From Escherichia coli (lineage in GTDB: Bacteria; Pseudomonadota; Gammaproteobacteria; Enterobacterales; Enterobacteriaceae), in assembly GCF_003334785.1 (NCBI RefSeq), contig NZ_QOWV01000003.1: a stretch of DNA of 64,000 bases. One strand, 5' to 3'. Position 1 is the first letter of the stretch; each line of letters begins with the position of its first letter. Shown piece after piece: positions 2,888 to 5,889 of this stretch. The notes below the pieces were generated by a model. It searched no databases and had not been told where the DNA came from. It saw only the letters and a program-made list of their open reading frames with translations. The translations under genes were made by a program, and so were the position numbers.

Positions 2888-3778
2888 TTATTTCAGCGCG
2901 CCTGGTGAGAAGAAATCAACAATTGCGCCGGTTTTTTGCATATTAATATTAGCTTGTTCAATGTTGAGCTGGGCGACAGAGACAAAAAAAGCGTCCAGCA
3001 AAGTTAGTTGTAATATTCTTGCCGAGGCATTACGACCTAATAACGGCGTTTCCGGGGCTGGTGAGCAAATAATATAATCGGCCAGTTTCGCTATCGGTGA
3101 ATGGTAGCTATGGGTTATACAAATAATCTTTGCCCCGTTCTTTTTTGCCAGTTCTACGGCCGCTTTTACATCACTGGTTCGCCCGGAATGGGTCACTACC
3201 AGCACAACATCTCCTTCCTGTAACAACGAAGCGGACATCATCATGATGTGAGCATCAGGATAGGCCTGACAGCGTACGCCAATGCGCAAGAACTTGTGCT
3301 GTACATCAGCACAGATAGCATTTGATCCTCCGGCACCGTACAAATCCCGCTGTCTGGCCTGATAGAAAAAGCGGGCGGCACGGTGGATCTCATCAACGTT
3401 GACGATCGACTGACCTTCCATAATGGTGCGTAAAGTGATGTTAAATACCTTATTCACCACATCCTGCGGCGCTTCATCAAAAGCCAACTCGGAAGGCAAT
3501 ACCTGTTCTGACTGAGAAAAATAATCTTCCAGCGCACTGCGTAAGTTACGAAAGCCGCTAAACCCCAGCAGCTTTGATACCTTAACTATCATCGCTTCAG
3601 ATACCGCCAGAGCTTCTGCGACATCTTTAATTGCGGGTGCACAACTCAGGTTACCGGGTTTGAGTAACCACTCCACGATGCGGCTTTCATTTTCTGTCAT
3701 TCCTTCCTGCTTCATTCGCAGGTAAGGCGCTAACCCTATACCGTTCGGAAGCGCTGAATCAAACTCTGACTGGCTCAT
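2888..3778 (-). CDS. alsR: RpiR/AlsR family transcriptional repressor of the als operon and rpiB (HTH + SIS domain)
   Basis: Track ORF 2888..3811 (307 aa); start placed at internal Met (cat at 3776..3778) to give the 296-aa length I recall; divergent from rpiB. Confidence 0.85.
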   Translation of the reverse strand: MSQSEFDSALPNGIGLAPYLRMKQEGMTENESRIVEWLLKPGNLSCAPAIKDVAEALAVSEAMIVKVSKLLGFSGFRNLRSALEDYFSQSEQVLPSELAFDEAPQDVVNKVFNITLRTIMEGQSIVNVDEIHRAARFFYQARQRDLYGAGGSNAICADVQHKFLRIGVRCQAYPDAHIMMMSASLLQEGDVVLVVTHSGRTSDVKAAVELAKKNGAKIICITHSYHSPIAKLADYIICSPAPETPLLGRNASARILQLTLLDAFFVSVAQLNIEQANINMQKTGAIVDFFSPGALK

Positions 3779-4136
3779 CACGTTCTCTTGTCCTTGAATT
3801 GAAGACGCCACTATATCACCACAGCAAGAACAGAAAAGATGCTGGCGACTTCACAAAAAAATAAAATTTATAAAGTTTATTTTATTGTGAACAATGGCGA
3901 GTGGCTTAAAATTTTATTTCATTTAATTAGTTTAAAAACATGATGTTATTTGTTTTTCTGGTTTTTTAGATGATAGATGTTGCTGGATGGTGAGTGTCTT
4001 TAACGCTATTGCGCTGTCAGATGTAACTCTGTAAAACAGATCAGGAAGGCGTAATTCATCGATTTTGGGTGTTTTTAATTCATTAACATCACAAATGTTT
4101 TTTGATTGTGAAGTTTTGCACGGACGGGGAAGATGA

Positions 4137-4586
4137 ATGAAAAAGATTGCATTTGGCTGTGATCATGTCGGTTTCATTTTAAAACATGAAATAGTGGCAC
4201 ATTTAGTTGAGCGTGGCGTTGAAGTGATTGATAAAGGAACCTGGTCGTCAGAGCGTACTGATTATCCACATTACGCCAGTCAAGTCGCACTGGCTGTTGC
4301 TGGCGGAGAGGTTGATGGCGGGATTTTGATTTGTGGTACTGGCGTCGGTATTTCGATAGCGGCGAACAAGTTTGCCGGAATTCGCGCGGTCGTCTGTAGC
4401 GAACCTTATTCCGCGCAACTTTCGCGGCAGCATAACGACACCAACGTGCTGGCTTTTGGTTCACGAGTGGTTGGCCTCGAACTGGCAAAAATGATTGTGG
4501 ATGCGTGGCTGGGCGCACAGTACGAAGGCGGTCGTCATCAACAACGCGTGGAGGCGATTACGGCAATAGAGCAGCGGAGAAATTGA
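4137..4586 (+). CDS. rpiB: Ribose-5-phosphate isomerase B / allose-6-phosphate isomerase
   Basis: 149-aa ORF MKKIAFGCDHVGFILKHEIV..., RpiB/LacAB family; sequence recognised. Confidence 0.95.
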   Translation: MKKIAFGCDHVGFILKHEIVAHLVERGVEVIDKGTWSSERTDYPHYASQVALAVAGGEVDGGILICGTGVGISIAANKFAGIRAVVCSEPYSAQLSRQHNDTNVLAFGSRVVGLELAKMIVDAWLGAQYEGGRHQQRVEAITAIEQRRN

Positions 4587-4654
4587 GATTCATCCACTAC
4601 TTGCATGGATGAGTAATGATTAATGTGGATAGAGTTTCTTTTTGAGGTTGGCTA

Positions 4655-4984
4655 ATGAAACGCTTTCCGCTATTTCTTTTATTCACCCTGCTCACGCTGT
4701 CCACCGTTCCGGCCCAGGCCGATATTATCGACGACACCATTGGCAATATTCAGCAGGCGATTAATGACGCTTATAACCCTGACCGTGGGCGAGACTATGA
4801 AGATTCGCGCGACGACGGCTGGCAGCGTGAAGTGAGCGACGATCGGCGCAGACAATATGACGACCGCCGCCGCCAGTTTGAAGATCGCCGCAGGCAGCTG
4901 GACGATCGCCAGCGCCAGCTTGATCAGGAGCGTCGGCAACTGGAGGATGAAGAGCGGAGAATGGAAGATGAGTATGGGCGATGA
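4655..4984 (+). CDS. yjdP: Small secreted protein with Arg/Asp/Gln-rich repeats
   Basis: 109-aa ORF with signal peptide (MKRFPLFLLFTLLTLSTVPAQA) followed by repeated DDRRRQ/EDRRRQ units; matches my memory of YjdP. Confidence 0.75.
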   Translation: MKRFPLFLLFTLLTLSTVPAQADIIDDTIGNIQQAINDAYNPDRGRDYEDSRDDGWQREVSDDRRRQYDDRRRQFEDRRRQLDDRQRQLDQERRQLEDEERRMEDEYGR

Positions 4985-5004
4985 GGTTGGGTATGGAGCA
5001 GGCA

Positions 5005-5110
5005 TCGCCCCTCACCCCAATGGGGAGAGGGAGAAAACGAGCGCAATATTCAATATCGAGCACAATCGGTCCCCTCGCCCCTCTGGGGAGAGGGTTAGGG
5101 TGAGGGGGCC
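5005..5110. repeat. GC-rich imperfect palindromic intergenic repeat (boxC-like family), two copies
   Basis: cccctcaccccaatggggagaggg and cccctcgcccctctggggagagggttagggtgaggggg; same motif recurs at 32281..32310. Confidence 0.5.
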
Positions 5111-5130
5111 AGCGCGCACATTCCCTCTCA

Positions 5131-5889
5131 TCACGCCACCCCAATCTCCATCCCATCAAACCCCACCTCAAACCCTGACGGTAGTGCGTTTTCCATCAGC
5201 CACGCATCAAACTGGTGGCTGATATGGGTCAGAATCACCCGTGGCGAGCGGATAACCTGATTCAGCGCAAGCACGGTATTTAAATCACAGTGATTACGCG
5301 GTGCATCCGCGCGCGGCGGGTGACTGCAATCCATCACCATTACCTGCGGCTGATTATTGCGTAAAAATTTCAGCGTTTTTTCCGGCAAGCCTGCGGTGTC
5401 AGACAGCCACGCCACCCGGCTGTGTGCCGTTTCCAGCAGATAACCGAAGGTCAGTTTTGAGTGGTTGAGCGGCAGGGGCGTGACCTGTAACCCCTGCAAA
5501 TCAAACACCACAAACGGTTCCACCGTGTGGCTGAAATCAAGCAGGCCCGGATGTTTAAACAGATCGTCGCAGCCCTGTTCATCCGGCGGGCCGTAAACCG
5601 GGATCGGATCGCCAACGCCCCAGCGCAGCGGAAACAGCCCCTGGACGTGATCCATATGATAATGCGTCAGCAAAAACTGCTGGAACGATCCGGGCGACCA
5701 GCGATCGGCGAGATCGTGCAGCCCGGCGTCGATCAGGGTGATTGCGTCGTTAAACTTCACTACGCCGCTGCACGGTTGGCGGCGATACTGCGGCGAGCGC
5801 CGCGCTCTGGCGCAGGCCGCACACTCGCAGCCCCATGCCGGAACGCCCTGTGCGCCGCCGGTGCCGGTGAGCGTGAGGGTCAGGCTCAT
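5131..5889 (-). CDS. phnP: Phosphoribosyl 1,2-cyclic phosphate phosphodiesterase (metallo-beta-lactamase fold)
   Basis: 252-aa ORF with HxHxDH motif ([12 protein letters not shown]); recognised as PhnP. Confidence 0.93.

Follow-up and report, generated by a model that had tools for sequence, protein, structure and literature searches.

YjdP of Escherichia coli: a probable Sec-exported, charged helical protein behind a candidate RcsB-type promoter

The window analysed here, a stretch of 64,000 nucleotides from Escherichia coli, contains a short open reading frame whose translation is dominated by acidic and basic residues and which lies close to a G+C-rich palindromic repeat. Such a frame raises the question of whether it is a gene at all and, if so, where its product acts and what switches it on. 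The ORF listing gave an ATG start, a TGA stop and a 109-residue product.

4655–4984, + strand: yjdP coding sequence, 109 codons plus TGA (ORF, family match, RefSeq annotation, purifying selection)

The sequence-only reading had called the gene yjdP, and this name was borne out. The translation matched the NCBIfam equivalog NF041443, “DDRRRQL repeat protein YjdP”, with 147.9 bits (cutoff 90) over profile positions 1–101 of 101, and the RefSeq annotation labels the locus ‘DDRRRQL repeat protein YjdP’. The ORF is yjdP (b4487) of E. coli K-12, an annotated core gene. All homologues retrieved, one of them identical in sequence, already carried a precomputed assignment to Pfam family PF28054 (YjdP); a local Pfam-A scan of YjdP gave nothing significant, only coiled-coil noise, the library apparently being older than PF28054. 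The charged DDRRRQ-type repeats described earlier are present, and the translation contains the string that was quoted for them. The databases already list the gene and its family and describe the repeats. Full-text literature searches for yjdP, b4487 and DDRRRQL found no functional work, in keeping with the earlier statement that the function is not established.

A single copy of yjdP was found in 5405 of 5426 complete E. coli genomes. The homologous loci listed (80 of 91) represent at least about 18 genera of Enterobacteriaceae. The sequence-only reading had staked its case partly on a frame conserved outside the source strain, and the frame was intact in approximately 77 of these 80 loci. 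Salmonella and Klebsiella pneumoniae occurred neither among the 80 of 91 loci listed nor among 120 named clusters. The family is small and, at 50% identity, falls into 53 clusters in a collection of 1.84 billion representative proteins.

Long shadow ORFs on the opposite strand could mean that the frame arose by chance in G+C-rich repetitive DNA or that the real gene lies antisense (4679–5005 or 4761–5171, − strand). However, the + frame is under purifying selection, with synonymous sites saturated between genera and with indels of multiples of three or of 21 nt. The signal peptide and the Shine-Dalgarno sequence are conserved, the curated family model was passed and a yjdP transcript has been measured (PMC5105897), whereas the antisense product was recognisable in Escherichia only, plus weakly (45–48% identity) in three Pseudocitrobacter loci. 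Purifying selection, family match and transcript refute a chance frame or an antisense gene, whose probability is practically nil.

Collections of mobile elements were searched as well. A tblastn search of a phage collection of 50,697 records showed no YjdP match, and PADLOC returned only one coiled-coil-type match (E-value 0.019), which does not place YjdP among anti-phage defence proteins. In the plasmid collection yjdP occurred in 13 records, all non-mobilizable; these look like mis-assigned chromosome pieces, because several are chromosome-sized. In our reading yjdP is a genuine chromosomal gene that Enterobacteriaceae inherit vertically.

The signal peptide was assessed by a rule-based check of its n-, h- and c-regions and of the cleavage site.

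4655–4720, + strand: Sec-type signal peptide, residues 1–22 (MKRFPLFLLFTLLTLSTVPAQA) (hydropathy profile; conserved A-x-A followed by Asp)

The n-region M-K-R carries a charge of +2 (K2, R3). It is followed by an h-region of 15 hydrophobic residues, F4–V18, with Kyte-Doolittle 9-residue means of up to 2.6, and by the c-region P-A-Q-A with small residues at −3/−1 (A20-Q21-A22) before D23. These features agree with the sequence rules for Sec and type I signal peptidase (charged n-region, h-region of at least 10 residues, small residues at −3/−1). All 85 motif-bearing homologues end in A-x-A (AHA 50, AQA 18, ARA 11, AYA 4, ALA 2). Although the signal-peptide sequence diverges (dN 0.13–0.8), its character is kept, also in three divergent alleles and in an LFT-repeat expansion. 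Neither a lipobox, L-[AS]-[GA]-C, nor any Cys was found in K-12 YjdP, and no mature orthologue contains Cys; a twin-arginine motif, S/T-R-R-x-F-L-K, was likewise not found, the n-region reading M-K-R-F in K-12 and MKR, MQR or MKT in orthologues. The yjdP product has been described before as having a ‘putative signal peptide’ (PMC5105897). Cleavage probably occurs after A-Q-A22, and from these sequence features we infer export to the periplasm via Sec. The signal peptide on which the earlier reading had also staked its case is thus present by the rule-based check and conserved across homologues. Its word ‘secreted’ was right as to a Sec-type signal; putative export to the periplasm by Sec describes the protein better.

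The predicted mature protein comprises 87 residues (11.0 kDa, pI 4.6, net charge about −8), among them 20 Arg, 19 Asp, 9 Glu and 10 Gln. Three segments follow the signal peptide.

4721–4780, + strand: N-terminal amphipathic segment of mature YjdP, precursor residues 23–42 (DIIDDTIGNIQQAINDAYNP), the most conserved part of the family
4781–4834, + strand: variable acidic linker, residues 43–60, differing in length and sequence between genera
4835–4981, + strand: heptad array, residues 61–109, with S/Y/F/L/L/L/M at every seventh position, each followed by D/E-D-R-R-R-Q

The N-terminal segment contains the invariant motif DIIDDxIGNIQQAIxDAY and has a dN/dS of about 0.03 (range 0.02–0.08); AlphaFold2 predicted it to be helical with low confidence (pLDDT about 50). 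The linker evolves fast (dN 0.4–1.4) and was modelled with a pLDDT below 50. For mature residues 32–86, AlphaFold2 gave a single helix of roughly 55 residues with a pLDDT of 84–98, which agrees with the ‘charged helix’ proposed before. The sequence-only reading had overlooked both the N-terminal motif, where conservation is highest, and the conserved box in the promoter.

The heptad unit, [Y/F/L/M]-D/E-D-R-R-R-Q, is strictly phased. Tandem Repeats Finder reported 3.5 copies of a 21-bp unit at 4838–4910, and within residues 61–109 six of seven hydrophobic residues share one heptad register (permutation, P<5e-5). The six hydrophobic heptad positions were found in 75 of 84 orthologues, and the array is under purifying selection with a dN/dS of about 0.06–0.16. 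Natural Escherichia alleles with 5, 6 and 8 heptads exist. The term ‘low-complexity’ is accurate for Asp/Arg-rich repeats, but undersells an array of this strict phasing under selective constraint. Across the family, Arg is the basic residue of choice (1536 Arg versus 32 Lys).

Opposite charges are arranged along the helix in a non-random manner. Attractive i+3/i+4 pairs numbered 36 (19 i+4 and 17 i+3) compared with 21.1 ± 3.5 expected from 20,000 shuffles, and only four repulsive pairs were present compared with 20.2 ± 3.4. This excess of opposite-charge over like-charge pairs along a long helix is the pattern expected of a charged single α-helix (SAH). Asp/Glu and Arg stacked at i+3/i+4 may therefore stabilise the helix by themselves in the manner of charged single α-helices; six or so heptads would extend to about 8 nm and bear one narrow Leu stripe. 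Mature YjdP would then consist of an amphipathic N-terminal helix, most likely a module binding a partner or a surface through DIIDDxIGNIQQAIxDAY, followed by the fast-evolving acidic linker and the stiff charged α-helix.

A different view is that mature YjdP is mainly a disordered polyampholyte, a hydrophilin-like ‘molecular shield’ working without a specific partner, or that, in a periplasm under stress, it would act as a decoy for cations and cationic peptides or buffer them. Consistent with this, 53% of residues are charged, the net charge ranges from −6 to −13 across the family, residues 62–109 are masked by the BLAST low-complexity filter, and pLDDT is low in the linker and the N-terminus. 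A function based on composition only predicts neither the strict phasing and very low dN/dS nor the position-specific conservation of the N-terminal motif and the heptads. The helix pLDDT of 84–98 also speaks against disorder. Hydrophilins contain more than 6% Gly; YjdP, with 4.6%, stays below this value. We consider a disordered shield quite improbable.

More weight has to be given to the possibility that the heptads form a coiled coil of the leucine-zipper type, in which the Y/F/L/L/L/M stripe would join the chains of a parallel dimer or trimer and Arg side chains would flank the core, forming a short Lpp-like periplasmic stalk. A hydrophobic residue recurs exactly at every seventh position over at least 42 residues and is kept in 75/84 orthologues. 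A seven-residue Leu spacing may just as well point to self-association, and the heptad number is conserved between genera. A PDB sequence profile search with YjdP yielded weak matches, solely to coiled-coil chains (M protein, EibD, Skp), the best being streptococcal M protein with E = 0.003. However, the hydrophobic a and d positions of a canonical coiled coil were not observed; the positions i+3/i+4 from Leu are Arg, Gln or Glu, and in every heptad the second core position is Arg or Glu, which is unfavourable for an a/d core. In addition, the charge pattern is optimised for pairs within one helix. To approximate a homodimer, two mature copies were joined in tandem and modelled by AlphaFold2 from a paired alignment. 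The pTM was 0.48 and helix confidence fell, with a pLDDT of 85–89 in this two-copy fusion and of 96–98 in the isolated helix, values that describe model confidence and not the oligomeric state. Foldseek searches against the PDB gave 0 matches for the monomer model and none below E = 3.8 for the tandem-fusion model. A zipper is possible, though doubtful; we favour a monomeric, self-stabilised helix.

The region between the upstream gene and yjdP was analysed for regulatory elements.

4583–4600, + strand: near-invariant upstream box TTGAGATTCATCCACTAC (family consensus TTGAGATTCCTCCGCTAC; conservation across upstream sequences)
4584–4597, + strand: candidate RcsB box, the 14-mer TGAGATTCATCCAC (match to the published RcsB consensus)
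4621–4626, + strand: putative −10 hexamer TAATGT (family consensus TAACGT; conserved T-A-n-n-n-T columns)
4644–4647, + strand: Shine-Dalgarno sequence GAGG, 7 nt before the ATG (direct reading; GAGG or GAGA conserved across loci)

The first three bases of the 14-mer at 4584–4597 are the stop codon of rpiB. The box follows the pattern TGAGATTC(C/A)TCC and was present in all 77 distinct yjdP upstream sequences, its end always 54–58 nt before the ATG. Within the box the information content approaches its maximum, just upstream it is near zero, and the box is kept whichever gene adjoins upstream, including in O157:H7, where an island takes the place of the als genes. Compared with the published RcsB box, TN(G/A)GAN4TC(T/C)NA (PMC7913699), 7 of 8 specified positions match and the final A is replaced by C; the core T-N-R-G-A-N4-T-C-Y was found in 77/77 distinct upstream sequences. 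Because a pattern this degenerate should occur, taken alone, about once every 4 kb on each strand, the case for an RcsB box rests on conservation and spacing.

In the putative −10 hexamer T, A and the final T are conserved, and 23 nt separate the box from TAnnnT. Transcription is predicted from these positions to start near 4633. Relative to this predicted start, the box would lie next to or overlap the −35 region, a position that fits activation. A simple sigma-70 consensus scan reported no promoter-like site, TAATGT at 4621–4626 included, and a terminator scan gave terminator-like matches only on the wrong strand, within the G+C-rich repeat. An Rfam scan of 4000–5600 at permissive E-values produced no match, and RNAalifold gave no consensus structure for the yjdP 5′ UTR; a hand-specified 6-bp hairpin in this 5′ UTR received modest support.

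Published RNA-seq data show that yjdP RNA rises 9.5- and 10.6-fold upon inhibition of LolCDE, together with osmB, bdm, wca, rcsA, ivy, mliC and spy (PMC5105897). Since the same inhibitor also raises sigma-S and Cpx genes (osmY, katE, otsAB, cpxP, degP; PMC5105897), the induction of yjdP is not Rcs-specific. Taken together, the conserved promoter and these RNA-seq data suggest that yjdP is switched on by the Rcs envelope-stress response, and direct control by RcsB would fit the upstream sequence. The gene would have its own promoter with an RcsB-type box centred near −42.5, so that it would be class-II RcsB-activated, and YjdP would be made when the Rcs phosphorelay senses damage to the outer membrane, to lipoprotein trafficking or to peptidoglycan.

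Box and induction might also reflect another regulator, that is, a NarL/FixJ-family protein, an RcsB heterodimer, sigma-S or Cpx, in which case YjdP would be a general or osmotic stress protein. The many sigma-S and Cpx genes in the Lol-inhibitor list would fit this. The conserved box spans 18–20 nt compared with 14 nt for an RcsB site, and its last consensus base is missing. Overexpression of CsiR was accompanied by a ChIP peak inside yjdP and by 3.5-fold repression (PMC5217608), which points to other regulatory inputs. On the other hand, the RGA-N4-TCY core is intact in 77/77 sequences and the distance from box to −10 is the same as in rprA. Inspection of the conserved upstream segment by eye showed no direct repeat of the CpxR type, GTAAA-N5-GTAAA. 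We regard a regulator other than RcsB as unlikely.

The downstream side of yjdP is occupied by G+C-rich palindromic repeats and by the convergent phn genes.

5008–5107, no strand assigned: G+C-rich palindromic intergenic repeats, two units, outside the gene (sequence inspection)

Copies of CCCCTC(A/G)CCCC-N3-GGGGAGAGGG are located at 5008–5031 and 5071–5094, and an inverted arm at 5095–5107. The palindrome was earlier said to follow the gene directly; it is indeed downstream, but begins 24 nt past the stop codon. It is missing from many strains and from other genera; in strain 1162invT2, from which the repeats are absent, 27 bp lie between yjdP and phnP. The yjdP–phnP intergenic site has been described as a hairpin–G-quadruplex element (PMC5100583).

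Tight convergent synteny raised the idea that yjdP is tied to the phosphonate (phn, C–P lyase) operon, either as a periplasmic accessory or through convergent-transcription interference with phnP. In about 70 of the 80 loci listed, phnP is convergent and immediately downstream, often just 3–9 bp away; in one distant homologue locus (L083) yjdP and phnP overlap by 4 nt, and the upstream neighbour varies. Nevertheless, Escherichia whittamii has lost phnC-P (gene order yjdP-yjdN-yjdM-crfC) and kept yjdP with dN=0 compared with K-12, and Phytobacter loci lack phn genes within 5 kb. Moreover, yjdP and the phn genes are oppositely oriented, the conserved promoter shows nothing like the Pho box consensus on inspection by eye, and adjacency is expected from vertical inheritance in one family. 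As yjdP survives the loss of phnC-P, we set aside a functional tie between the gene and the phn operon as very improbable.

Our preferred reading, to which we assign a rough probability of 0.55, is that YjdP is an Rcs-induced, Sec-exported helical protein of the periplasm with its own RcsB-type promoter. Its role in the envelope may be protective or that of an adaptor. A bolder version, which we offer as a long shot, makes yjdP a direct RcsB target conserved across Enterobacteriaceae and its product a fixed-length periplasmic adaptor or ‘ruler’. The N-terminal helix would dock on an envelope component, e.g. part of the Rcs sensing machinery or a protein of the peptidoglycan or outer membrane. 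With its ~8 nm, the rigid Asp/Arg helix would fix a distance or offer a charged surface, and the Escherichia alleles with 5, 6 and 8 heptads would tune its reach. yjdP is a K-12 ‘y-gene’ nearly universal in E. coli genomes. If the promoter has been read correctly, the gene would be a conserved and easily testable addition to the Rcs envelope-stress regulon and YjdP would be a periplasmic protein small enough to handle readily, with an unusual helix stabilised by its own Asp/Arg pairs. This overturns nothing; it should concern those working on envelope stress and on the physics of single α-helices.

With respect to the YjdP family (NF041443, PF28054), the protein in the window is the K-12 member itself, with a full-length match and no difference. 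Charged single α-helix (SAH or ER-K) segments occur in myosin VI/X and caldesmon. Like these, YjdP has dense opposite charges at i/i+3 and i/i+4, and a long isolated helix was confidently predicted for it. It differs in using Asp/Arg instead of Glu/Lys, in having one hydrophobic residue per heptad and in being bacterial, predicted to be periplasmic and only ~55 residues long in its helix; no sequence homology to the SAH examples was found. YjdP resembles Braun's lipoprotein Lpp, a periplasmic coiled coil, as a small, signal-peptide-bearing, heptad-repeat helical protein of the enterobacterial envelope (predicted), but it has neither lipobox nor Cys and only one hydrophobic core position per heptad, and no similarity was detected. 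Ivy, MliC, Spy, CpxP, OsmY and YpeC share with YjdP co-induction in RNA-seq (PMC5105897), small size and a signal peptide, and Spy and CpxP are all-helical, as YjdP is predicted to be. In contrast, no sequence or fold match connects YjdP with these six proteins; for the CpxP/Spy/ZraP family, an LTXXQ-type helical hairpin, neither Pfam nor PDB sequence and fold searches gave a match. The closest parallel to the promoter is rprA, the archetypal and verified RcsB-dependent promoter, which has a 14-bp TNRGA-N4-TCYNA-type box with its centre at −42.5 relative to the annotated RNA start and 23 nt from its −10. The candidate yjdP box ends in C and not in A, and conservation reaches 4–5 nt past the 14-mer, but it sits 23 nt from its putative −10, exactly as in rprA.

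yjdP lies in an E. coli K-12-like gene order between rpiB and a convergent phnP.

Features of the window around yjdP
2888-3811, minus strand: alsR/rpiR
4137-4586, plus strand: rpiB, the 5′ neighbour of yjdP
4583-4600, plus strand: conserved box TTGAGATTCATCCACTAC, overlapping the rpiB stop codon
4621-4626, plus strand: putative -10 element TAATGT, conserved as TAnnnT, 23 nt after the box
4655-4984, plus strand: yjdP, 109 residues, ATG start
5008-5107: G+C-rich imperfect palindrome in two tandem units, CCCCTC(A/G)CCCC-N3-GGGGAGAGGG plus TTAGGGTGAGGGG, filling the yjdP-phnP gap
5131-5889, minus strand: phnP, the 3′ neighbour of yjdP, then phnO and phnN

The ATG is located 7 nt downstream of a GAGG Shine-Dalgarno sequence. 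The gene name is borne out by identity to MG1655 b4487/yjdP and by a match to the entire profile of the NCBIfam equivalog NF041443, 'DDRRRQL repeat protein YjdP' (147.9 bits; curated cutoff 90). Of 5426 complete E. coli genomes, 5405 carry a single copy of the 330-nt coding sequence, and the probability of a spurious ORF is practically negligible. Public databases already list the gene together with its family model and record its repeat nature.

A GTDB scan using one genome per species yielded 91 relatives, and the 80 retained loci belong to Escherichia, Citrobacter, Enterobacter, Klebsiella (oxytoca, grimontii), Raoultella, Kosakonia, Cedecea, Leclercia, Lelliottia, Kluyvera, Pluralibacter, Trabulsiella, Pseudocitrobacter, Pseudenterobacter, Phytobacter, Silvania and unnamed Enterobacteriaceae; about 77 of them keep an intact reading frame. 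HMMER, run exhaustively against 1.84 billion representative proteins, recovered no more than 53 clusters at E<=1e-3, including a few compositional matches to giant repeat proteins; the family is thus very small and restricted to enterobacteria. yjdP was found neither on phages in a phage collection nor on genuine mobile plasmids in a plasmid collection. One full-length locus (L011) comes from a record labelled Chryseobacterium sp. 18061 (Bacteroidota). Its flanks match phn genes at 58-90% protein identity, as in Enterobacteriaceae loci, and the assembly is probably mislabelled or contaminated. In one E. coli genome (NZ_OZ501671.1), which matches the equivalent of window 4500-5200 in two pieces over ~1.5 kb, an IS1 transposase is annotated inside the rpiB-yjdP-phnP stretch.

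All members share one architecture: a signal peptide, an N-terminal segment, a variable Asp/Ser/Arg-rich linker and a heptad array. The N-terminal segment, D[IV][IV]D[DE]AIGNIQ[QR]AIxDAY, is almost invariant, with hydrophobic residues in an a/d-like 3-4 spacing. Computed region by region against K-12, dN/dS was 0.02-0.08 for this segment and 0.06-0.16 for the heptads where synonymous sites were unsaturated (dN 0.05-0.27). In the linker dN reached 0.4-1.4, synonymous sites were saturated and dN/dS was mostly not measurable. With its fixed architecture and these dN/dS values, YjdP is a constrained protein, to which the label 'low-complexity' of the sequence-only reading does less than justice.

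The secretion signal proposed in that reading is supported by sequence pattern: residues 1-22 are predicted to form a Sec signal peptide, with its three regions in MKR, a core of 15 hydrophobic residues, and P-A-Q-A ahead of an Asp. A-x-A precedes an invariant Asp in 85/85 homologues with the motif, while the sequence of the signal peptide drifts (dN as high as 0.8; several alleles within Escherichia). No twin-arginine motif was found in the signal peptide, and since YjdP has no Cys it is not a lipoprotein. The mature protein has 87 residues (11.0 kDa, pI 4.6), among them 20 Arg, 28 Asp+Glu and 10 Gln. Throughout the family Arg is used almost exclusively (1536 Arg vs 32 Lys), and the net charge is negative in every member (-6 to -13). 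That YjdP acts as a non-specific polyampholyte shield is decidedly unlikely.

The DDRRRQ-like charged repeats are evident both in the DNA, as a 21-bp unit of 3.5 copies at 4838-4910, and in residues 61-109, which split into sevens: SDDRRRQ / YDDRRRQ / FEDRRRQ / LDDRQRQ / LDQERRQ / LEDEERR / MEDEYGR. Six of the seven hydrophobic residues share one register (P<5e-5), and six hydrophobic heptad positions occur in 75/84 orthologues. Length alleles exist within Escherichia, namely a common 102-aa form with five such positions and a 123-aa E. albertii form with eight. In a 118-aa allele of strain 1162invT2 (L002 2156-2512; equivalent of window 4655-4720), tandem expansion of a 9-bp (Leu-Phe-Thr) unit, MKRFPLFLLFTLFTLFTLFTLFTLFTVPAQA / LFTLFTLFTLFTLFT, lengthens the signal-peptide hydrophobic core; this polymorphism in repeat length is the second in the short gene and independent of the first.

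An AlphaFold2 model of mature YjdP, built on a 46-sequence alignment of mature proteins, contains a short helix at mature residues 3-18 (pLDDT about 50), a disordered linker at 19-31 (below 50) and a single uninterrupted helix at 32-86 (84-98), in agreement with the charged helix anticipated earlier. The long helix has 36 attractive i+3/i+4 pairs vs 21.1±3.5 in composition-preserving shuffles, and 4 repulsive pairs vs 20.2±3.4; in the model this charge layout is suited to intrahelical salt bridges. The hydrophobic stripe might instead reflect a zipper-type oligomer, which is the less likely reading; a canonical a/d coiled-coil core is absent, the second core position being Arg or Glu. An AlphaFold2 tandem fusion of two copies gained no confidence and matched nothing in the PDB, which holds no solved structure related to YjdP by sequence or fold.

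The gene that precedes yjdP varies: about 20 loci have rpiB there, O157:H7 has a two-component island, and elsewhere other genes for sugar transport are found. The upstream sequences of different genera are therefore unrelated. Similarity sets in abruptly at the box (A/T)ATTTGAGATTCCTCCGCTAC, whose end lies 54-58 nt before the ATG in 77/77 distinct upstream sequences and whose information content is near maximal over ~19 positions. Apart from the box, TAnnnT provides the sole conserved columns of the region. The embedded 14-mer TGAGATTC(C/A)TCC(G/A)C matches 7/8 specified positions of the RcsB homodimer box TN(G/A)GAN4TC(T/C)NA, defined by structure and EMSA (PMC7913699). At rprA, the archetypal RcsB-activated promoter, the box TGAGACGAATCTGA, centred at -42.5 relative to the annotated RNA 5′ end, is followed by the -10 TACTAT exactly 23 nt on, the same spacing as at yjdP. 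By itself a degenerate RcsB box carries little weight; the window contains a single exact match to the consensus (TGAGATGCGTCTGA at 54286-54299, inside the dsbD coding sequence), within the chance expectation of 2.4±1.6. In an RNA-seq experiment with a LolCDE inhibitor, E. coli yjdP rose 9.5- and 10.6-fold and is listed amid the classical Rcs genes osmB, bdm, wza-wca, rcsA, yjbEFGH, ivy, mliC and spy (PMC5105897). Because of the box match, the rprA-like spacing and this co-induction, yjdP is most probably activated directly by RcsB, in the class-II manner. Control by another regulator is unlikely, even though the inhibitor also induces Cpx and sigma-S genes (PMC5105897) and a CsiR ChIP-seq and overexpression study reported a peak inside yjdP and 3.5-fold repression (PMC5217608). 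The literature searched yielded no rcsB-mutant results on yjdP.

In O157:H7 the als/rpiB genes are replaced by the EHEC OI167 island, the boundary of which lies just upstream of the box (L001 about 2910-2985; window 4583-4586). Different genera carry different genes ahead of the box (als/rpiB, other sugar ABC systems), which suggests an insertion or replacement hot-spot. Outside Escherichia, an inverted repeat GCCAG...CTGGC brackets the Shine-Dalgarno sequence (in an alignment of the 36 nt preceding the ATG; window ~4630-4654), beginning at about the predicted transcription start. In this repeat 76% of cells are paired, with some compensatory changes (GGTCAG/CTGACC, TGATC/GATCA) and covariation only modestly above shuffles (8-16 of 500). 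RNAalifold predicted no structure from the 5′ UTR alignment, and the K-12 5′ UTR largely lacks the repeat.

Convergent phnP adjoins yjdP immediately 3′ in ~70/80 loci, often 3-9 bp from its stop, and in two distant homologues a phn-type neighbour overlaps it by 4 nt. A phn-related role, which this adjacency might suggest, is very improbable: Escherichia whittamii has lost phnC-P, with yjdN, yjdM and crfC coming next after yjdP, yet retains yjdP with zero non-synonymous changes in the mature part, and no phn genes lie near Phytobacter yjdP loci. A functional link was set aside on this evidence; ancestral gene order together with the putative insertion hot-spot upstream of the box explains the pattern. 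In most genera the stops are 3-9 bp apart or overlap by 4 nt (L008, L013, L014, L025, L065, L083, L084 and others; window gap 4984-5131), leaving no room for terminators, so that both transcripts must extend into the facing gene; antisense or transcriptional interference between them is possible.

The palindromic repeat reported directly 3′ of yjdP is present and G+C-rich, although it begins 24 nt past the stop codon. No copy would be expected by chance, and the intergenic site is listed as a hairpin-G-quadruplex element (PMC5100583). The element is missing from many E. coli strains and from other genera, and so looks as if it had been inserted later between two genes that converge closely. 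A third, related copy occurs at 32294-32316.

Taken together, we favour, at a probability of roughly 0.55, a chain in which the Rcs response would induce yjdP, Sec would export an 87-residue periplasmic protein, its conserved N-terminal amphipathic helix would dock on some partner, and a self-stabilised Asp/Arg helix about 8 nm long would project from it. Regulation and architecture alone lead us to infer that YjdP may protect the envelope under stress or serve there as an adaptor. Three elements appear not to have been reported before and make this y-gene testable: the conserved promoter of RcsB type, the N-terminal motif and the charge pattern of the single helix. The long predicted helix shows the charge-pair signature of charged single alpha-helices and is unusual among them in its superimposed Leu stripe, one residue wide.
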